From: Candidatus Krumholzibacteriia bacterium
GTDB taxonomy: Bacteria > Krumholzibacteriota > Krumholzibacteriia > WVZY01
Assembly (NCBI GenBank): GCA_036478295.1
Contig: JAZGDW010000233.1
Coordinates: 1-19,531, forward strand
Direction of reading: 5' to 3'
Length of the DNA stretch: 19,531 bases
Shown: piece after piece, positions 3,749-15,425 of the stretch
Layout: each line of letters opens with the position of its first letter
How positions within the stretch are numbered: the first letter of the stretch is position 1
Position numbers and translations under genes: made by a program
The notes under the pieces: generated by a model
Databases searched by the model: none
What the model was told of the DNA's origin: nothing
The model's input: the letters and a program-made list of their open reading frames with translations, nothing else

Positions 3749-5233
3749 CTAGTACTTGACGCGGACCGTATAGGTCAGCTCGGCTGTTCCCTTGCGGTCC
3801 ACCGGCACGTCGAAGCGAATGCGGTTGGAGGATTCCTTTTCGAAGTCGTGCGACTTTTCCACTACTTCCCAATCGCTGGGAATCACTTCGACCACCGAAA
3901 CGGTGATGGGTTCCTCTTTGTGATTGCGCAGTTCGACCTTGTACGAGGACTCGTAGAGGTGCCCGCTCTGCAGCACCTTGAAACGGGTCTGGACGCGCTC
4001 GCCGATGACGTCGAAGGCGTCACCCATCTTGACGCGTATGGTCTCGTCCTCCGGCGTGTGGTCAATCCGGTCTTCACCGATGAACTGCAGGTCCTCATCG
4101 TGATCGCGCTTGTAGACACGGACGATGCCCTTCGGCAGCGGCATACCCAGGTTGTTCTCCTTCGAGTTCTCGAACGCCAGAAACACTCCGACCTTGGTGT
4201 CCTTGTCAGGCCCCGACATGGCGGCGAACCAGTAGGGCACGCTGGCCTGGTATACGTACTTTTTCTCGACGGAGGCGTTTTCGGCGCTGAGCAGACTGAT
4301 CTGCTTGGTCTGGTTGTCCTTGATCGTGCTCTTGCGCTGCAGCGTGTAGAGATGGTATTCGAAAAACGCTTTCTCCACGAACTGCGCAGCCGACCGCTTG
4401 GCCGACACCTCGTAGGGCCGAGAGGCCGGATAGAGGCCTCGCTCGGGGCCCGCCCGGTGCACGTCGCCCGCCACCAATTTGATCGAAGCGTCTGGATAGG
4501 TCGCGCCGCTCTCGTTATTTATCGTCACCCATCCCGACAGATCGATTTGCTTGTCGTCCGTGGACAGCACCAGGACATAGTTGCATTTCCAACTGATACC
4601 GCCGGTAAGATAGCTTGCCTCCACCTTGTGCTCGCGGCGGTCGTTGTCCAGCATCCACACGAGGGTCGGCTTCGAGATCAACCCTTCGGGGAGCTCCGGC
4701 AGCAAGACGCGTGCGGACGGGTTGACGGCAATCTTGCCGTCCATCTCGTAGACGTACCCGCCCTGGTCGCCGATCAGGCGCGCGGGCACGACGACTTCCT
4801 TCTTGTTCTTCCACATGACGAGCTCCACGTCGCGGCCGAGGTATTTCTCCATGAGTTTTGCCGGGCTGATGAGGTCGAACTCGAAGTTCTGCTCGAGCAC
4901 GGCGATATGCCCCGGGTGGGTCAGCGATCGTATGTGGACGCTGGTAGGGTCGATCTTCGCGGCGACTCCCTGGAACTTCAGGTCCAGCACCCCCCGGGAC
5001 AGGCGGAGGTCTCGGATATCTTTGACCAGGCCGAGATTACTGTTGTAAATCGTAATGCTGATTGATTCCTGGTCGTCGAGCGTGCTCGTCTGCTCGGGAC
5101 CCTGCGGCGCGGCCCACGCCGGTCCGCCGGTAAGCATCCCCAGCACCAGGATTGCCGAGGTCACGAACACAGAAAAACGCAGCGGGCACAGGCTCACGCT
5201 GAACATCGGTAACAAGATTCTTCGGTCAAACAT
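3749..5233 (-). CDS. DUF4139/DUF4140-type exported protein
   Basis: Signal-peptide-like N-terminus ending AWA-APQ; family-like motifs ITIYNSNLGLVKD, EQNFEFDL, SYLTGGISWKCNY, FFEYHLYTL, LGMPLPKGIVRVY, FIGEDRIDHTP. Confidence 0.8.
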   Translation of the reverse strand: MFDRRILLPMFSVSLCPLRFSVFVTSAILVLGMLTGGPAWAAPQGPEQTSTLDDQESISITIYNSNLGLVKDIRDLRLSRGVLDLKFQGVAAKIDPTSVHIRSLTHPGHIAVLEQNFEFDLISPAKLMEKYLGRDVELVMWKNKKEVVVPARLIGDQGGYVYEMDGKIAVNPSARVLLPELPEGLISKPTLVWMLDNDRREHKVEASYLTGGISWKCNYVLVLSTDDKQIDLSGWVTINNESGATYPDASIKLVAGDVHRAGPERGLYPASRPYEVSAKRSAAQFVEKAFFEYHLYTLQRKSTIKDNQTKQISLLSAENASVEKKYVYQASVPYWFAAMSGPDKDTKVGVFLAFENSKENNLGMPLPKGIVRVYKRDHDEDLQFIGEDRIDHTPEDETIRVKMGDAFDVIGERVQTRFKVLQSGHLYESSYKVELRNHKEEPITVSVVEVIPSDWEVVEKSHDFEKESSNRIRFDVPVDRKGTAELTYTVRVKY

Positions 5234-5394
5234 GACTCACCACCTTGAGAAATCGAGACGGCCGCTTGAAAGGCCAGCGGCGATAGCTATGCATACAATG
5301 CTTTATACAGACAGGGAAAGCGTTAATTCCGCAGCAGCAGGGATCTTTGAGGCATCACAGGGAGGCATGCGACGGGCCCGGCGCGGCAAAGGAC

Positions 5395-5495
5395 GGCGGT
5401 GCGTTGTTGGGGTGGTGACGGAGCCGTTTCGGGTACAGGTGGCGGCGCGTTGTTGGGGTGGTGACGGAGCCGTTGCGGGTACAGGTGGCGGCGCG
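5395..5495. repeat. Tandem duplication, 46-bp unit, about 2.2 copies
   Basis: GCGTTGTTGGGGTGGTGACGGAGCCGTT(T/G)CGGGTACAGGTGGCGGC starts at 5401 and 5447 with one mismatch. Confidence 0.9.
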
Positions 5496-5647
5496 CGGGT
5501 GGGCTGTTGACGGACCCCCATGCGGGAGCGAGCGAGGATCACGCGCCGCAGGCGGGTAGCCGAGCGAAGCGGAGCGCGGGTCAGGAGACAGTCCACCCGC
5601 GCGCCGCCGACAACCGCAGGCGGGTAGCCGAGCGAAGCGAAGCACGG
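5487..5647. repeat. Interleaved inverted and direct repeats (REP/MITE-like)
   Basis: 21-bp inverted repeat at 5487-5507 and 5588-5608 (20/21, the mismatch is G.T). 34-bp direct repeat CCGCAGGCGGGTAGCCGAGCGAAGCG(G/A)AGC(G/A)CGG at 5546-5579 and 5614-5647 (32/34). Confidence 0.75.
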
Positions 5648-5795: not shown

Positions 5796-6170
5796 TCATT
5801 GCTGCTGCGTGGTATCCGCTGGAACGCTGTCCAGCACGGAGGTTCCCAGGATAGCGTCGATACTCTCGCCGGTCGGGATGATGTTCCCCTCTTGCTGTAT
5901 CGATTGCTGGATGACGCTCCTCGGCCGGCTGGTGGAGCGGTTCGACGTGAGCAACGCGAGCAGCAGCGAGAGCAGCATGAAGGCTACTGCGAGGTACGTC
6001 GTGGCCCTGGTCAGAAACGTGGCCGTCTCGTGTCCGCCGAAAACCGTCTGGTCCCCACCACCGCCGAACGCCCCCGCCAGCCCGCCGCCCTTGCTCGACT
6101 GCATGAGCACGACGATAATCAGCACGAAACAGACCGTAACGTGAATGACCAATACGAGAGTGTAAAGCAA
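5796..6170 (-). CDS. secG: Preprotein translocase subunit SecG
   Basis: Two TM helices flanking VLMQSSKGGGLAGAFGGGG and FLTRATTYLA. TTG start with AAAGGA SD; located after tpiA. Confidence 0.95.
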   Translation of the reverse strand: MLYTLVLVIHVTVCFVLIIVVLMQSSKGGGLAGAFGGGGDQTVFGGHETATFLTRATTYLAVAFMLLSLLLALLTSNRSTSRPRSVIQQSIQQEGNIIPTGESIDAILGTSVLDSVPADTTQQQ

Positions 6171-6196
6171 GTAAGGTGTCCTTTCTCTTTCGGGTC

Positions 6197-6225
6197 AGCC
6201 TAGCAGACCGCTCGTGGAAAGTCAA
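6197..6225 (-). promoter_or_regulatory. Candidate sigma70 promoter for secG-tRNA-Leu
   Basis: TTGACT-17 nt-TAGGCT with an extended -10 TG on the minus strand. Confidence 0.55.
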
Positions 6226-9541: not shown

Positions 9542-10012
9542 CTACAAAGCCCTAGCAAAGCAGAGCACTTCAAGAGAAATCGCCCCCGCCGCGAAAATAG
9601 CGCAGGCGCAGGCGGCCGCCGTCGCACCAGTGGTCACAAGATCGTCGACGAGGAGCACCCGCTTTCCGGCCAGACCTGACCCGGCGCAGGCAAAGGCCCC
9701 ACGGACGTTCGCCGCCCTCGCGGCGTGAGGCGTTCGAGATTGCCGCGCCGTTCGCTTTACCCTTTTTAGCACATTTCTAATCAAAGGGATATCGAGTTCG
9801 TGCTGGAGGTGCCTTGCGATATCCTCGGGTAGATTTATGCCGTGCCGTCCAACCCGCGTCACGGGCACGGGAACGAGCACCGTCGTCGAATCGGACCCGT
9901 GACCGAGGCGGCGGTACGCGTCCTCAAGTGTTTCCGCAACTGGCTGCGCCAGACCCCAGTACCGATCGAACTTGATCAAGTGGACTATTTTCAACGGGTT
10001 ATCACTGGTCAT
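9542..10012 (-). pseudogene. comF: ComF family protein, C-terminal (phosphoribosyltransferase-like) fragment
   Basis: Motifs LVPVP, RQSRTPHAARAANVRGAF and PRPP-binding VLLVDDLVTTGAT. Begins exactly at the target-site duplication of the IS. Confidence 0.9.
10005..10012. repeat. Left 8-bp target-site duplication CTGGTCAT
   Basis: Identical to 12741-12748; both directly flank the terminal inverted repeats. Confidence 0.93.
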
Positions 10013-10074
10013 CGGGACTGTGTACTTGTCGCAATCCCAATGAAATCAATGCAATAGGCGGGATTCTGGCGTAA

Positions 10075-10236
10075 TTACTTCTTACGCTTGGGCTTCCGCT
10101 TCTTTTGGGGCTTCTCTGGCCAGCCTTCCTTCGGACGCTCTTTCTTGAGAGCTTTGTCGACAGCGTCCTGCCAATCACCGTCAATATTGACGTGTTCCGG
10201 CTGTCTGCCACGCTTTTTGGGTTTTTCTTTGTTCAT
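10075..10236 (-). CDS. Small basic hypothetical protein (53 aa), IS passenger
   Basis: Below the ORF-track cutoff. Manual translation: MNKEKPKKRGRQPEHVNIDGDWQDAVDKALKKERPKEGWPEKPQKKRKPKRKK*. Alternative ATG at 10242. Confidence 0.6.
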   Translation of the reverse strand: MNKEKPKKRGRQPEHVNIDGDWQDAVDKALKKERPKEGWPEKPQKKRKPKRKK

Positions 10237-10247
10237 CAGCATACTTG

Positions 10248-10276
10248 TTGACAGAAGTGCTGAGATGATTTAGATT
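10248..10276 (+). promoter_or_regulatory. Candidate sigma70 promoter for the 163-aa ORF and tRNA
   Basis: TTGACA (10248-10253)-17 nt-TAGATT (10271-10276); SD AAGGAG at 10294-10299. Confidence 0.65.
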
Positions 10277-10309
10277 TCCTTACGTCGAAGCCCAAGGAGC
10301 GATAGAGAC

Positions 10310-10801
10310 ATGATTAAGCTACGAGTCCCCTGGAACCAATCGCATATCGAAGGCGAATTCGACAATGTTGTCGAAGCCGCTGAATTTATTCGTGCTCTTG
10401 CTAACGGTACCGCTGCACCGTCCAATTCTCAAATGGCATTCGACTTAGGAGAAATTGAAGGGTCCACAGTTGGATTATCGTGGTCAGACGACGATATGTC
10501 CAGGCAAATGTCTTTCTTGCAGGGAGTCGCGAAAGCCAAGAAGGGCATTCTCACTAGAGATTTGGCAAAAGCGTTAGGCATGTCAGACGCTAGGGGTATC
10601 GGTGGGATCATGGCTGGGCTTGGCCGCAGGTTGAATAAATTGGATCTCAAACCAACGTCTGTGGTTAGGAAAAGAAAAACCAAAGCGGGCTTGAAGTATT
10701 CCCCCGGCCCCGAGATTCTTAAGGCGATTAAGCTTTTGGAAATGGCAGAAATTCTGGAGGAAGTGGGCGAGGAACACGGAAAAAAAGGCAGCCCGCCGTA
10801 A
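10310..10801 (+). CDS. Hypothetical protein, putative winged helix-turn-helix DNA-binding domain, IS passenger
   Basis: Has promoter and SD. GILTRDLAKALGMSDARGIGGIMAGLGRRL followed by a basic beta-hairpin-like VVRKRKTKAGLKYS looks like a wHTH (inferred by eye). Confidence 0.7.
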   Translation: MIKLRVPWNQSHIEGEFDNVVEAAEFIRALANGTAAPSNSQMAFDLGEIEGSTVGLSWSDDDMSRQMSFLQGVAKAKKGILTRDLAKALGMSDARGIGGIMAGLGRRLNKLDLKPTSVVRKRKTKAGLKYSPGPEILKAIKLLEMAEILEEVGEEHGKKGSPP

Positions 10802-10823
10802 GCAAGCTGCCTTTCAGGAGATT

Positions 10824-10909
10824 GCGGGCGTGGCGAAAATGGCAAACGCACTCGCTTTGGAAGCGAGCGCGGATTTTTCCGCATCCGGGTTCGAGCCCCG
10901 GCGTCCGCA
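10824..10909 (+). tRNA. Non-canonical class II tRNA: tRNA-Leu-type body with UGG (Pro) anticodon, no encoded CCA
   Basis: Acceptor GCGGGCG/CGTCCGC; D-arm GCG-AAAATGGCAAA-CGC; anticodon arm CTCGC-TTTGGAA-GCGAG (TGG at 10858-10860); variable arm GCGGA-TTTT-TCCGC; T-arm CCGGG-TTCGAGC-CCCGG; discriminator A at 10909. Confidence 0.9.
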
Positions 10910-10974
10910 AAATATGTCCAACCCGAAAGGATGGTGGTTACCTTGAGAGTTTGACCAAGCCCTTCGAGGGTGAC

Positions 10975-10997
10975 GGGGCCGGAGGAAACCCGGCCCC
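10975..10997. terminator. Strong GC hairpin, possible terminator of the ORF-tRNA transcript
   Basis: GGGGCCGG-AGGAAAC-CCGGCCCC, an 8-bp perfect stem. It is followed by ATATACT rather than a clean U-tract. Confidence 0.4.
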
Positions 10998-11003
10998 ATA
11001 TAC

Positions 11004-11034
11004 TGCTTATAAGCGCTTATAAGCACTGTGTCAA
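11004..11034 (-). promoter_or_regulatory. Perfect 22-bp palindrome (operator-like) overlapping a candidate minus-strand promoter
   Basis: TGCTTATAAGCGCTTATAAGCA at 11004-11025. Minus strand reads TTGACA (11034-11029)-17 nt-TATAAG (11011-11006). Confidence 0.6.
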
Positions 11035-11126
11035 GAACTAATCTATTATCCTGCTTTGAGTTAAATCGCCCATGCTCTTGTAACCGTATCGGGTGAAACT
11101 ATTTGCCAACTATTTTAATTTTTTAC

Positions 11127-11155
11127 TTGACGCAAACATCCTATTGTGTTATAGT
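11127..11155 (+). promoter_or_regulatory. Sigma70 promoter of the transposase (predicted leaderless mRNA)
   Basis: TTGACG (11127-11132)-17 nt-TATAGT (11150-11155) with extended -10 TG and an AT-rich upstream tract. The ATG begins 7 nt after the -10 box. Confidence 0.7.
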
Positions 11156-11161
11156 TAAGAC

Positions 11162-12130
11162 ATGAAAAAGAAGAAAAATAGTAAGGTAGCGGGTGACAAA
11201 TGTAAGGTAATTGCAGAAATACCAATAGCTTGCCAAGATGAGCAGGCAGCCGTGGAGTTCCTGGAAAAGCACCGGTGGAGCGATGATCCATGCTGTCCCC
11301 GGTGTGGGAGCGTGTCGGTCTACCAGATGGTCAGTCGCACGACTGGCAGGCGAAACGCCCGGTATCTCTGGATGTGCCGAGACTGCAAACGCCAGTATAC
11401 GGTTAGAATCGGCACCGTCTTCGAGGATAGCCGTATCCCGCTCAAACACTGGTGCTATGCCTTTTGGGCCGCGTGTGCGTCTAAGAAGGGCGTGAGTGCC
11501 CTTCAGATTAAGCGTATGACGGGGCTCTCGTATAAGAGCGCCCTTTTCATGATGCACCGTATCCGCTACGCCATGGCAGACGATCCCAAGACACCACGCA
11601 AGCTAACCGGGGTCGTGGAATGCGATGAGACTTACGTTGGTGGTCGCCCGCGCTACCCCAAGAAAGGTATGGGCAAGTCTTTGGATTGGATGGACAGGAA
11701 AACGCCGGTGCTGGCCATGGTGGAGCGTGGTGGTAATGCCAGGGCCATGGCAATTCCGAACGTCAAAGGTGTAACACTGTGGACGCACCTAAGGCGCCAC
11801 ATAGATCAGGAAGCAACGCTAATGACCGATGAGCTGCACGCCTACAAGCGCATCGGGAAGCCATTCAAGAAGCACTACCGGATAAAACACGGTCTGGGCC
11901 AGTACGTCAAAGGGGACGTTCATACTAACACGGTTGAGGGATTTTTCAGCCTGCTAAAGCGCGGAATTATCGGCACGTTTCACAGTGTATCCAAGAAACA
12001 CTTACACCGATACGTTGCTGAGTTTGAATTCAGGTACAACACGCGCCGACAGGGAGATGGGGAAAGGCTGGCGAAAGCGATAAAAAGCGCCCAGGGGAAG
12101 CGTTTGAAATACAAAGATCAGGTGAGCTGA
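11162..12130 (+). CDS. IS1595 family DDE transposase
   Basis: N-terminal zinc ribbon CPRCG...CRDC; KGVSALQIKR HTH region; catalytic motifs ECDETY, MTDE, HTNTVEGFF; C-terminal RYVAEFEFRYN. Frame is intact, 322 aa. Confidence 0.96.
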   Translation: MKKKKNSKVAGDKCKVIAEIPIACQDEQAAVEFLEKHRWSDDPCCPRCGSVSVYQMVSRTTGRRNARYLWMCRDCKRQYTVRIGTVFEDSRIPLKHWCYAFWAACASKKGVSALQIKRMTGLSYKSALFMMHRIRYAMADDPKTPRKLTGVVECDETYVGGRPRYPKKGMGKSLDWMDRKTPVLAMVERGGNARAMAIPNVKGVTLWTHLRRHIDQEATLMTDELHAYKRIGKPFKKHYRIKHGLGQYVKGDVHTNTVEGFFSLLKRGIIGTFHSVSKKHLHRYVAEFEFRYNTRRQGDGERLAKAIKSAQGKRLKYKDQVS

Positions 12131-12150
12131 AAACTTGGGCCAGTACAAAA

Positions 12151-12699
12151 TTAGAAAACTCGTTTAGCTTCTGTTGGCGAAGAAGTGGAAAGCCGAAAAT
12201 TAAGGTCAGAATCAATAACAAAGCGATATTCCTTTTTGTCTACGTTGTTGCCATAAATCTCAATTCTTAACTCGTAATACTTCTCAGGCCGCTCAACCCA
12301 ATGAGGGCAAGTTGCACATACTGGTTCGAGTCCTCTGAAACCGCTACTATCTTCAACAGTTCGAAGAACGCTTACCAGAACTGTGTGCCGTGGTGAAATA
12401 TTGAATTCATAAGCATCTTCGTCCCTGCAAAATAGTGGTGATCGAAGACGCTCAGAAATAACTTCAACATCTGACCCGTTCGGGTTCACGAATTCAACCA
12501 AGTCAGCTCTTACGTTTTCTGCCAACCAATTTCTGCTTATGTTTTGTAGTGCTATTTCCCACACAGTCCCCCTTAACTCTGGCATGTGGTGTTTCCGCTC
12601 AATTCGAAAAGGGCGGCCCCACGATACCTTGATCCTCGGCTTCAACCTGAAAACCTTACTGTGAAGCCAAACAGCGCAATCAAAGAGATTCCACAACAT
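12151..12699 (-). CDS. Hypothetical protein, IS passenger convergent with the transposase
   Basis: 182-codon ORF in AT-rich sequence with alternating beta-strand-like patterns (VWEIALQN, VLVSV, YELRIEIYG, YRFVID). No family recognised; start uncertain. Confidence 0.65.
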   Translation of the reverse strand: MLWNLFDCAVWLHSKVFRLKPRIKVSWGRPFRIERKHHMPELRGTVWEIALQNISRNWLAENVRADLVEFVNPNGSDVEVISERLRSPLFCRDEDAYEFNISPRHTVLVSVLRTVEDSSGFRGLEPVCATCPHWVERPEKYYELRIEIYGNNVDKKEYRFVIDSDLNFRLSTSSPTEAKRVF

Positions 12700-12740
12700 C
12701 GCGTTATCGTATCACAATTTGCATCAAGTACATACTTCCC

Positions 12741-12748
12741 CTGGTCAT
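12741..12748. repeat. Right 8-bp target-site duplication CTGGTCAT
   Basis: Identical to 10005-10012. Confidence 0.93.
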
Positions 12749-13255
12749 GAAGGGCGCGACAATTGGGATCGACACCTGGCCCTGGGGCCCACCGATCTCC
12801 GGGCCCGGTTCCGTGTCCACCGCGGGTTCGTCCCCGGTGTTGGGCGGCTCGAACCGTTCGCCGGTAGTCGTCGTTACCGCGCGGCCAGCATCGGCCCATC
12901 CCAACAACCCCGCCGTCCGGCCCGGCTCGAACCCCCCCGCACAACGCTCGCAAACGGGGTGATTACGAAGCGAAATGATCCGTAAGAAGGAGCGGGTCAC
13001 CGGACGGAGGAAGTAACCACTGAGCCCAGCCGCTTCACACGCCGTGGGCCCGGGCACACGACCCGATCCGCAGAGCGCGCACAGGTCTTCGACGAGAAAG
13101 TCCAGCACAGCCTGCGCGCCCGCGCTCGCCAAATGCGAGAACGCGCTTCGTGCAAAAAGAAAAGCCGAACCAGCACGCTGCGCGCTTCCGGCCTCGCCTT
13201 CCTTGCCCGCCCGATCCCCTCGATCCACACCCTTCACCTCCGACGGGATTGTCAT
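12741..13255 (-). pseudogene. comF: ComF family protein, N-terminal (zinc-ribbon-like) fragment
   Basis: ATG 13255 overlaps the lgt TGA (ATGA). Contains LDFLVEDLCALCG and VCERC. Reads VAPFMT into the TSD, then runs into IS sequence and stops at 12704. Confidence 0.85.
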
Positions 13256-14177: not shown

Positions 14178-15425
14178 TCAGTACTCGTACCATTTCACAC
14201 TACAATTTAGCAAGAATCCAACGAGGAAGCAACTCACGACCAGCGAGCTGCCACCGTAGCTAAGAAAAGGAACGGGGATTCCTGTGACCGGGGCCATGCC
14301 GGTTACCATCGCGATGTTGATAAACGTTTGAAAGAAAAAATACGCGGCGATGCCGATGCACACCGTACTCGCGAACTGGCCCTTGGCCTTTACGGCAATG
14401 GCGAGCGCGCGGGAGACGAGTACCGCGAACAGCACCAGCACGAGCAGCGCTCCGGCGAAGCCCATTTCTTCGCCGAGCACCGAAAAAACGAAATCCGTGT
14501 GCTTGGCAGGCAGAAACTCCAACGCTTTCTGCGTGCCCTCCAGAAAGCCCTTCCCGGAGAGTCCCCCGGAGCCAATGGCAATCTTGGACTGAAACACCTG
14601 CCAGCCGGCCCCCAGCCTTTCCGATTCGGGATTGAGAAAAGTGCTAATGCGAGACTGCTGGTAGGGTTTCAGGTGGTTCAAAATGATCGGGCCCACGAAA
14701 CCGACGCCCAAGTTGGCGACAACCAGCGTAATGCTCTCGCGCGGGTTCGAACGTCCCATATAGGCGACCACAAAAATCAGAACGATGTAGACGCCGAACG
14801 GCCACGAGTGCTTGAGGATCTGCCCGCAGTAGATGATCAAAACCCCTGCGACCACCGGGGAGATTATGAAGAATATCTGGCGGCCGCGGAGCCCTCTCCA
14901 GTACAAGACGGGAAGCAGCATGACGAGAAGGATAATCGCCGTGCCTAGATCCGGCTGCCGCAGAACGAGAAGGAACGGCACCAGCAATAGTCCGATCGAT
15001 GCGAACATCTTCTTTGCCCGGTCCATGCCGCCCATGTGTCCCGATAGCACACGTCCCCATACGAACAGCAGTGCAATCTTGGCTAACTCCGACGGCTGCA
15101 AACGCATGGGGCCGATAGAAATCCAGCGCTGTGCCGTGTCTCCGCTGCCGGCGAACAGGACGACAACCAGCAGCACCACACAAAAGAGATAGTACAAGTA
15201 GGCGAGGGCCTCGAAGTATCGAACGGGGACGGCAAACCCGATCAGCATGGCGACGATACCGAAACACACCCAAATCAGCTGGCGGTTGAAATACTGGTAG
15301 TCCACGTCCTGCGAGAATCCGCTCTGGGCAGGATGGAAAACTGAATAAATGAGACTGAGCCCGATAATGCACAGCAAGACCGATGTCGTCAGCACCAGCG
15401 AGTCGATGTCCCGGCTCACCCTCAT
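14178..15425 (-). CDS. rodA: Rod shape-determining protein RodA (SEDS glycosyltransferase)
   Basis: Motifs QRWI, QPSELAK, QPDLGTA, SKIAIGSGG, HTDFVF, PFLSYGGSS; follows mrdA. Confidence 0.96.
   Translation of the reverse strand: MRVSRDIDSLVLTTSVLLCIIGLSLIYSVFHPAQSGFSQDVDYQYFNRQLIWVCFGIVAMLIGFAVPVRYFEALAYLYYLFCVVLLVVVLFAGSGDTAQRWISIGPMRLQPSELAKIALLFVWGRVLSGHMGGMDRAKKMFASIGLLLVPFLLVLRQPDLGTAIILLVMLLPVLYWRGLRGRQIFFIISPVVAGVLIIYCGQILKHSWPFGVYIVLIFVVAYMGRSNPRESITLVVANLGVGFVGPIILNHLKPYQQSRISTFLNPESERLGAGWQVFQSKIAIGSGGLSGKGFLEGTQKALEFLPAKHTDFVFSVLGEEMGFAGALLVLVLFAVLVSRALAIAVKAKGQFASTVCIGIAAYFFFQTFINIAMVTGMAPVTGIPVPFLSYGGSSLVVSCFLVGFLLNCSVKWYEY

Follow-up and report, generated by a model that had tools for sequence, protein, structure and literature searches.

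A leucine-type tRNA with a proline anticodon is carried by an IS1595-family transposon and may be coupled to CCA codons of the transposase

The DNA analysed here (the window) is a stretch of 19,531 nt, contig JAZGDW010000233.1 of the Candidatus Krumholzibacteriia bacterium assembly GCA_036478295.1. Positions 10013-12740 of the window are a 'transporter' insertion sequence of the IS1595 family, which has transposed into the comF gene of the host. One of its passengers is a class II tRNA of intact structure (10824-10909, + strand), in which a leucine-type body is combined with the proline anticodon UGG. Related tRNAs accompany related transposases in many genomes, and codon 21 of the transposase gene, the CCA at 11222-11224 (+ strand) that matches the tRNA of the transposon, is CCA in 22 of the 26 members of the close transposase clade. 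Because the structure of the tRNA, its linkage to the transposase and the co-variation of the codon point in the same direction, we say that the tRNA appears to be under selection to decode CCA, and that this decoding probably matters for the transposase. An earlier reading of the bare sequence of the window (the original prediction) had been concerned with a tRNA and an open reading frame in front of it; we think that the main points, the link between tRNA and transposase and the codon coupling, lie outside that prediction.

From left to right the transposon contains ORF55 (- strand), ORF163 (+ strand), the tRNA (+ strand), hairpins and a palindrome, the transposase gene (+ strand) and ORF182 (- strand).

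Identity elements of the transposon tRNA

The tRNA is 86 nt long and was detected by Rfam (RF00005; score 53.7 bits, gathering score 29) as well as by ARAGORN, which reported it as Pro(tgg) with a length of 88 nt; the eighth acceptor pair in the ARAGORN model is a flanking T-A. The cloverleaf is of the 7/5 type with a 3-bp D stem, a long variable arm and the anticodon loop UUUGGAA. Its D arm, GUGGCGAAAAUGGCAAACGC, closely resembles those of the five tRNA-Leu genes of the host. In the available part of the source on E. coli tRNA identity (PMC9976931), recognition by leucyl-tRNA synthetase (LeuRS) rests on a set of elements all of which are found here, A73, A14, A15:U48, G18G19 followed by an A in the D loop, U54:A58 and C2:G71 together with a long variable arm, the anticodon and the variable arm being unused by the enzyme; C2:G71 is there described as blocking the seryl enzyme (SerRS).

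The anticodon, which is followed by A37, is that of proline (codon CCA) and not one of the leucine anticodons (NAG or YAA). The proline determinants G35, G36 and A73 are present, whereas in place of C1:G72, G15:C48, G37 and the class I body of proline tRNAs the transposon tRNA has G1:C72, A15:U48, A37 and the long variable arm. The bacterial-type prolyl-tRNA synthetase (ProRS) of E. coli needs G72 according to the same part of PMC9976931, and the ProRS of the host looks bacterial-type, with a tRNA_edit domain in a 625-aa frame; a ProRS-C_1 domain was not found. The CCA end is not encoded. In the host assembly (316 contigs, 90.9% complete) 36 of the 40 tRNAs called by ARAGORN encode CCA, the transposon tRNA being one of the 40 and lacking it, and a nucleotidyltransferase-family gene is present. 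With its Leu-type body, Pro anticodon and missing CCA the tRNA is as odd as the original prediction had described it.

A structural alignment was made of 16 rows: 12 UGG copies, three Leu-like tRNAs whose anticodons differ from UGG, and a tRNA-Leu of the host. Of its cells 99.1% were paired, and 16 of the 20 pairs showed compensatory change, values that none of 500 shuffles and no slid register came near. A14, A15, G18, G19 and U48 were invariant, and A73 was present in 15 of the 16 aligned tRNAs.

The host assembly contains a single canonical tRNA-Pro(UGG) locus (G000, contig C224, about 14564-14610; L206, 2065-2111), and this is truncated: some 47 nt from the 5' end of the gene are preceded by a promoter-like region and followed, after the break, by unrelated DNA. 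The same break, followed by homologous sequence, occurs in the genome G008, and the gene is intact in G001, which is of the same genus as the host, and in G007. The 3' half was found neither in the host assembly nor within 20 kb downstream in G008. Provided that the truncation is genuine and did not arise during assembly, the transposon tRNA could be the main reader of CCA in the host.

Linkage of the tRNA to the transposase

Two sets of loci were collected. The transposase-seeded set comprised the best 80 of 395 relatives, drawn from contigs of one genome per species, and tRNAs in the loci were called with ARAGORN and Rfam. A Leu-like UGG tRNA was found in 19 of these 80 loci, which come from many phyla (L002, L003, L006-L008, L010-L013, L016-L019, L021, L025, L026, L031, L032 and L036). 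Within the close transposase clade, defined as the window and 25 loci (26 sequences), 17 members carry it. The usual arrangement is convergent, with the tRNA 13-60 nt past the stop codon of the transposase; in the window, L017 and L151 the tRNA lies upstream on the same strand. In seven elements (window, L006, L012, L013, L016, L017 and L025) the tRNA is inside a unit bounded by target duplications.

The second, tRNA-seeded set was obtained by scanning metagenome contigs with a pattern made of the D arm and UUGGA, and comprised 80 loci among at least 120 matching stretches. Among the matches listed, a transposase relative was detected in 44 of the 80 loci and a transposase or ORF55 in 51, many of the contigs being shorter than 2 kb. 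From both sets 83 tRNA copies were parsed by script (19 from the genome set, 64 from the metagenomes, the latter again among the matches listed). The 1:72 pair is G:C in 70 of them (18/19 and 52/64, respectively), C:G in 10 and G:U in three; 81 copies have A as the discriminator and 19 encode CCA, and the length to position 73 varies between 74 and 114 nt.

Seven further loci of the transposase-seeded set, mostly from Verrucomicrobia (L030, L033, L035, L038, L039, L042 and L059), carry a UGG tRNA of class I, a second and different body for the identical anticodon. These tRNAs, which are at about 4920-5500 (- strand) and in L033 at 6144-6220, have U73, no clear GG in the D loop and the T loop UCCAAUC.

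The Leu-like body was also seen with other anticodons: UGC (Ala) in L041 (2290-2374), AGA (Ser) in L024 (6396-6482), UAU (Ile) in L118 (5205-5291) and the ochre anticodon UUA in L073 (5724-5810) and L120 (513-598), where it is in tandem with a UGG copy. The UGC copy of L041 sits within a duplication-bounded element. Ochre suppression was considered for L073 and discarded; the end of its transposase is close to the usual position, and no homology was seen by eye in the read-through frame. In L002, L006, L010, L016 and L026 (about 4986-5122, - strand) the UGG tRNAs have very long variable arms and are 100-114 nt in length; they were missed by ARAGORN and detected by Rfam, and in three of these tRNAs position 37 is G and not A.

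Proposed codon coupling between tRNA and transposase

Codon 21 of the transposase is in the motif L/I/V-P-x-A-C-x-D-E, just before the zinc ribbon. In the clade it is CCA in 22 members, CCG in two, CCT in one and an arginine codon in one. Thus CCA accounts for 22 of the 25 proline codons at this position against 21% at other proline columns (binomial p = 1.6e-12, calculated without regard to kinship among the loci). For a second proline, a few codons before the stop, the share of CCA is 17/18 (p = 4.7e-11, calculated in the same way). When 99 conserved four- or six-fold degenerate columns were compared, these two had the highest share of a single codon (0.94 and 0.88; median 0.48), and they were the only columns dominated by a codon ending in A or T. 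The codons beside position 21 vary freely at synonymous sites, and the GC content at third codon positions (GC3) is 0.55-0.87. In the replicate set, sampled independently from metagenomes, position 21 was CCA in 19 and CCT in four sequences and never CCG or CCC, the two zinc-ribbon prolines being mostly CCG or CCC (among the matches listed).

The codon also co-varies with the presence of the tRNA. All 17 tRNA-bearing members of the clade have CCA at codon 21. The four members with another codon, L009 (CCG), L014 (CGG), L023 (CCG) and L027 (CCT), had no tRNA detectable by ARAGORN or Rfam, and in three of these loci the element is complete and bounded by duplications. In a maximum-likelihood tree of the transposases, in which every row of the clade was kept and L031, L036, L038 and L044 were added as outside rows, they do not group together: each forms a tip of its own, nested among relatives with both the tRNA and CCA.

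The Verrucomicrobial relatives whose UGG tRNA is of class I have the sequence K-P(CCA)-L-K near the C terminus in 6/6 cases. Among Alphaproteobacterial relatives (L049-L079), which have no linked tRNA, the C-terminal proline is encoded by CCT in nine sequences, as counted by hand from the alignment rows, despite high GC3. The use of a rare proline codon close to the stop may go back further in the history of the transposase group. An extended pairing of the anticodon loop with mRNA bases near codon 21, in the manner of a kissing loop, was also considered and rejected, as the flanking bases vary freely by eye.

The transposon and its insertion into comF

The transposon is 2,728 bp long and is bounded by terminal inverted repeats and an 8-bp duplication. 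The left terminal inverted repeat, CGGGACTGTGTACTTG (10013-10028, + strand), differs at three positions from the end motif GGAAGTATGTACTTG; the right one (12725-12740, - strand; CAAGTACATACTTCCC in the letters of the + strand) is an imperfect inverted repeat of it. The target duplication CTGGTCAT flanks the ends at 10005-10012 and 12741-12748, and both copies encode the Met-Thr that is now present twice in comF. Eight base pairs is the usual length of the target duplication in the IS1595 family. The end motif also bounds the related elements, which are 1.7-4.2 kb in size, and an 8-bp duplication was found beside the ends in 15 of 15 elements checked. The GC content drops from about 0.58-0.60 in the flanks to 0.45-0.52 between roughly 10000 and 12700. 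The transposon is present in a single copy in the 316 contigs of the host assembly and was not found in a DNA search of 40 relatives. The original prediction had taken the tRNA and its surroundings for a self-contained module; they proved instead to be cargo within this duplication-bounded IS1595-type transposon.

The insertion divides a gene that in the same-genus genome G001, used as the uninterrupted reference, is an unbroken ComF-like frame of 315 aa. The C-terminal, phosphoribosyltransferase half of the host copy is at 9542-10012 (- strand; 10012-9545 aligns with residues 161-315 of the G001 protein), and the N-terminal, Cys-rich half at 12713-13135 (- strand), which aligns with residues 42-173 and of which a few codons enter the end of the transposon. 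The break falls exactly at the duplication, with Met-Thr on both sides. Judged from this divided frame, the comF-like gene of the host is inactivated by the transposon, and the still intact 8-bp duplication suggests that the insertion is fairly recent.

The transposase (322 aa, 11162-12130, + strand) is an IS1595/ISXO2-type DDE enzyme with the Pfam domains DDE_Tnp_IS1595 (PF12762, 1.6e-41) and, at its N terminus, Zn_ribbon_IS1595 (PF12760, 1.6e-10). The element thus shows the features by which the IS1595 family is recognised: the DDE domain, the zinc ribbon, terminal inverted repeats and a direct target duplication. In the consensus scan a TG-extended promoter-like site, TTGACG-17-TATAGT (11127-11155, + strand), ended 6 nt 5' of the ATG of the transposase gene.

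ORF55 (10075-10242, - strand) encodes a small Lys/Arg-rich protein and points outward at the end of the transposon. It has 44 homologues in the loci (tblastn), with the motif GP.P..LK..GDW..AV..AL.KKRP..GWP; no Pfam family was assigned and its matches in the Atlas were hypothetical proteins only. This basic protein of about 50 aa is conserved in the clade and is likely an accessory factor of these insertion sequences. ORF182 (12151-12699, - strand) is an orphan passenger: the database search returned its own record alone, no homologue was found in the fetched loci, and a weak partial match to DUF3841 was under the Pfam cut-off.

ORF163, promoter-like sites and hairpins

The sequence features listed in the original prediction were found as described. 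ORF163 (163 aa, 10310-10801, + strand) has the sequence AAGGAG 9 nt 5' of its ATG and is preceded by the promoter-like TTGACA-17-TAGATT (10248-10276, + strand), which agrees with the consensus at 10 of 12 positions and is a consensus match only. Between 9900 and 12800 the scan gave four promoter-like sites against 2.7 ± 1.7 in shuffles; because the count resembles that of the shuffles, the TTGACA-17-TAGATT match taken alone is at chance level. The gap of 22 nt between the stop codon of ORF163 and the tRNA is present (10802-10823), and so are the hairpins after the tRNA: the segment 10905-11040 folds with -47.9 kcal/mol (z = -3.17), and none of 200 shuffles was as stable. One of the hairpins obtained by folding, 3' of the tRNA at 10975-10997 (+ strand), is G+C-rich and has an 8-bp stem and no U tract.

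ORF163 had been described as similar to winged helix-turn-helix proteins, and structure prediction points in this direction. The protein is predicted to have an N-terminal beta-hairpin and helix, which a disordered linker joins to a C-terminal winged-helix domain. The AlphaFold2 model built from the family alignment had a mean pLDDT of 85.5 with the order helix-helix-helix-wing in the C-terminal half, and the top Foldseek matches in the PDB were all winged-helix proteins of the MarR/ArsR type (lowest E 3.3e-3, all above 1e-3, TM about 0.3-0.5). At the sequence level no Pfam family was found and the sequence-family searches gave sub-threshold matches only. A word-indexed search for relatives returned ORF163 itself alone, and a full HMMER search of 1.84 billion representatives returned 15 weak relatives (E <= 1e-3).

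A gene of the ORF163 family precedes a UGG tRNA on the same strand in the window, L003, L151 and L155. The proposed linkage of the tRNA to ORF163 homologues is seen outside the window; the gaps in these three loci are about 120-270 nt by eye, and the distance is shorter than 100 bp in the window only. Since the family was encountered in four of about 170 examined loci bearing the tRNA or the transposase, ORF163 is not the general partner of the tRNA. It may be an occasional winged-helix accessory gene that could regulate the module.

The antisense promoter of the original prediction exists as a sequence, TTGACA (11034-11029), a 17-nt spacer and TATAAG (11011-11006) on the minus strand. As a promoter it is weak. 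It was not listed by the consensus scan because its second hexamer ends with G and not with T, and it is not conserved in L151, the sole locus with the gene order of the window. Its -10 hexamer is contained in a perfect 20-bp palindrome at 11005-11024, in which GCTTATAAGC occurs twice; no palindrome of this kind was seen on inspection of L151. An operator role of the palindrome was considered and rejected: there was no further GCTTATAAGC half-site in the neighbourhood of the promoter of ORF163, and the number of matches with at most two mismatches was four, with 4.15 expected.

Proposed role of the tRNA and alternatives

In the reading that we rank first, and whose chances we judge to be evenly balanced, the tRNA is a private CCA decoder that is charged with leucine, or with both leucine and proline, and is coupled to the transposase. 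A conserved passenger of the transposon clade, it would serve as the transposon's own reader of one or two fixed CCA codons of the transposase, codon 21 before the zinc ribbon and, in most relatives, the second one a few codons before the stop. In the window it would be co-transcribed with ORF163 from the promoter at 10248, processed by RNase P and RNase Z and provided with CCA by a host enzyme. LeuRS, being blind to the anticodon, would aminoacylate it, and leucine, or a mixture of leucine and proline, would be inserted at CCA. The output or the make-up of the transposase would hence depend on a tRNA that the transposon itself supplies. Charging with leucine is favoured because the leucine set is complete and invariant, G1:C72 is present in most copies and the host ProRS looks bacterial-type, and also because just two proline columns are fixed as CCA and conserved prolines elsewhere avoid this codon. 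The occurrence of the same body with other anticodons fits a synthetase that does not read the anticodon. A wider form of the proposal, to which we lean less and which is put forward tentatively, is that the private codon-tRNA pair extends over the whole clade: a leucine-charged tRNA, and not the code of the host, might set the amount or sequence of the transposase (with proline and leucine mixed at set positions), as a mobile reassignment of a sense codon used for self-regulation, and sister elements might act likewise through different anticodons (Trp, Ala, Ile, stop).

Several observations weigh against a leucine-inserting decoder coupled to the transposase. Among the metagenome matches listed, 10 of the 64 copies have C1:G72, and the acceptor stem of L116 is exactly that of the host tRNA-Pro, which points to some members at least being charged with proline. 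Part of the UGG copies are not associated with a detected transposase. The p-values of the codon coupling overstate the evidence, as the loci are interrelated; five clade members retain CCA with no tRNA found (three of them, L004, L015 and L022, are on contigs cut near the gene), and in the window the C-terminal position of the transposase is CAG and not CCA. Codon 21 is still a proline codon after loss of the tRNA in three of the four cases (CCG, CCG and CCT) and never turns into a leucine codon, so that leucine is not required there. In a simple recoding test no column of conserved leucine was found to carry proline codons in the tRNA-bearing elements. Finally, the two proline columns of the GP.P motif of ORF55 are CCA in 17/37 and 13/30 sequences, and an efficient inserter of leucine would harm these prolines.

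Part of this evidence fits the view that the tRNA is charged with proline and supplies CCA decoding to an AT-richer element in GC-rich hosts, the Leu-like body being the relic of a captured tRNA-Leu(UAG). ProRS reads G35, G36 and A73, all of which are present, and tRNAs encoded by phages provide a parallel. The C1:G72 copies with the one full tRNA-Pro acceptor stem, the proline that remains at codon 21 once the tRNA is lost and the frequent CCA at conserved ORF55 prolines all agree with such a role, and so does the finding that the assembly's lone canonical tRNA-Pro(UGG) locus is a 5' fragment. The elements have a lower GC content than their flanks and use CCA more often: in the window CCA makes up 11 of the 34 proline codons of the transposon (32%) against 17 of 194 in the host genes, where the codon is rare (9%; 11% in long ORFs genome-wide), and pooled over eleven other elements, with a crude ORF set, 25% against 13%. 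Proline charging is difficult to reconcile with the invariant leucine determinants (A15:U48 and not G15:C48, and the D loop of the Leu type), with G1:C72 in 18/19 genome-set copies and 52/64 of the metagenome copies listed, and with a host ProRS of the type that in E. coli needs G72 (PMC9976931, available part). Sister elements reuse the body with Ala (UGC), Ser (AGA), Ile (UAU) and ochre (UUA) anticodons, and proline supply leaves it unexplained why only two proline columns are fixed as CCA when conserved prolines elsewhere are CCG or CCC. We rank proline supply second and regard it as rather unlikely. That the tRNA takes no part in decoding and is a passenger kept as a signal for processing or termination or as a site of recombination, or is a neutral hitch-hiker in decay, is improbable. 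The enlarged variable arms, with some copies of 100-114 nt, the degenerate appearance of the copies in L005 and L013, the variable side and orientation of the tRNA relative to the transposase and the inactivity of some irregular tRNAs in E. coli (Mukai et al., PMC5389517, available part) would be compatible with it. The UGG anticodon is kept across two unrelated tRNA bodies, all four stems are maintained by compensatory change, the tertiary positions relevant to synthetases are invariant and the matching codon of the transposase co-varies with the presence of the tRNA; a processing signal is disfavoured because it would need none of this conservation of anticodon, stems, tertiary positions and codon. 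More doubtful still, and in our view very improbable, is the proposal of the original prediction, a cassette resembling toxin-antitoxin or defence systems, in which a harmful mistranslating tRNA would be restrained by the winged-helix protein and/or an antisense RNA. A Leu-type tRNA acting at proline codons could indeed be toxic; an engineered tRNA-Ser(UGG) mistranslates in yeast according to the available part of that report; an ORF163-family gene is ahead of the tRNA in four loci, the 20-bp palindrome after the tRNA is a possible operator, SocA/Panacea genes are near the UGG tRNA in three transposase-less loci, and allo-tRNAs have been described beside toxin-antitoxin loci (Mukai et al., PMC5389517, available part). 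Yet most tRNA-bearing elements lack ORF163 (4/~170 loci have it), the antisense element, whose -10 ends with G at a key position, is missing from the list of the scan and has no conserved counterpart in L151, and a search with Pfam only gave no family of toxins, antitoxins or defence proteins for ORF55, ORF163 or ORF182 of the transposon. The strongest signals, moreover, bind the tRNA to the transposase and not to a partner protein.

Relation to known systems

Statements about the cited papers hold for the parts of them that were available. The closest natural counterparts are the allo-tRNAs or 'irregular' tRNAs of soil bacteria, in which a body of serine identity, served by a synthetase that is blind to the anticodon, is combined with a mismatched anticodon and which were shown to insert the amino acid of the body in E. 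coli; some have toxin-antitoxin loci as neighbours, and one, a pseudogene, overlaps with a transposon-related ORF (Mukai et al. 2017, PMC5389517; review PMC7609411). The transposon tRNA resembles them in being a natural bacterial tRNA whose body and anticodon disagree. It differs in having a 7/5 fold, A73 and a Leu-type body, whereas allo-tRNAs have serine identity and a 12-bp acceptor/T branch of the 8/4 or 9/3 type; the allo-tRNA paper (PMC5389517) describes no defined transposon family, no UGG group (UGG is absent from its main text) and no codon coupling. In Streptomyces and Kitasatospora, tRNA-ProX are dedicated chromosomal mistranslating tRNAs of dual identity, for which mistranslation was shown (Schuntermann et al. 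2023, PMC10404621). There, conversely, a Pro body bears Asn, Thr or Ala anticodons, proline is inserted at other codons and a special ProRS isoform is involved, and neither 'transpos' nor 'mobile' occurs in the text of that paper (PMC10404621). Transporter insertion sequences of the IS1595 family have been described by Siguier, Gagnevin and Chandler (2009, cited in PMC3129680); they share with the present element the zinc-ribbon DDE transposase, the inverted repeats, the 8-bp duplication and passengers unrelated to transposition, and in the literature searched no tRNA passenger, ORF55-like protein or codon coupling was found for them. The engineered yeast tRNA-Ser(UGG) is similar in its class II body, proline anticodon and mistranslation, but it is a laboratory construct and not transposon cargo. 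Full-text literature searches yielded no Leu-type UGG tRNA as cargo of an IS1595 element and no codon coupling between a tRNA and a transposase; paywalled papers or supplements may hold one.

tRNAs encoded by phages, including the suppressor tRNAs of recoded phages, match codons preferred by the phage or privately control phage genes. The present tRNA differs from them in its carrier, a DDE transposon of 1.7-4.2 kb, in the mismatch of body and anticodon and in the one or two fixed sense codons. The nev-tRNAs of nematodes also combine a leucine-type body with a non-leucine anticodon and cause mistranslation; they are eukaryotic nuclear genes and not cargo of a transposon.

Natural tRNAs with a mismatch of this kind have so far counted as rare oddities confined to a few lineages. 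In the present case such a tRNA is the conserved passenger of a defined clade of DDE transposons, in genomes labelled with at least nine phyla (a count that rests on record titles), and is accompanied by a matching codon signature in the transposase. If the tRNA is active, transposons are able to carry a small part of a changed genetic code from one bacterium to another. Regulated mistranslation would then have a novel source, and the control of the transposase might be of a novel kind as well. Since one unit of 2.7 kb holds tRNA, codons and transposase together, the case can be tested directly. Automatic annotation as 'tRNA-Pro' may conceal both the transposon and the mismatch between body and anticodon.

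Minor observations

In three loci in which no transposase relative was found, genes with SocA/Panacea antitoxin domains lie about 0.3-1.3 kb from the UGG tRNA (L117, 1354-1920; L140, 1752-2126; L149, 2665-3207). They recall the allo-tRNAs beside toxin-antitoxin loci (PMC5389517, available part) and have no bearing on the transposon of the window. The tRNA pattern was also detected in nine viral contigs of IMG/VR. In two of these, L216 (1693-1777) and L217 (2994-3078), the UGG tRNA is part of an array with tRNA-Lys, tRNA-Tyr and a tRNA with the anticodon ACU; two others hold relatives of the transposase. In the host assembly ARAGORN called a dubious 'tRNA-Thr(ggt)' of 95 nt on contig C13 (2600-2694). 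A second tRNA-Pro(GGG), on the 3-kb contig C42 of G000 (1783-1857), is without the CCA that is encoded by its twin on contig C92.

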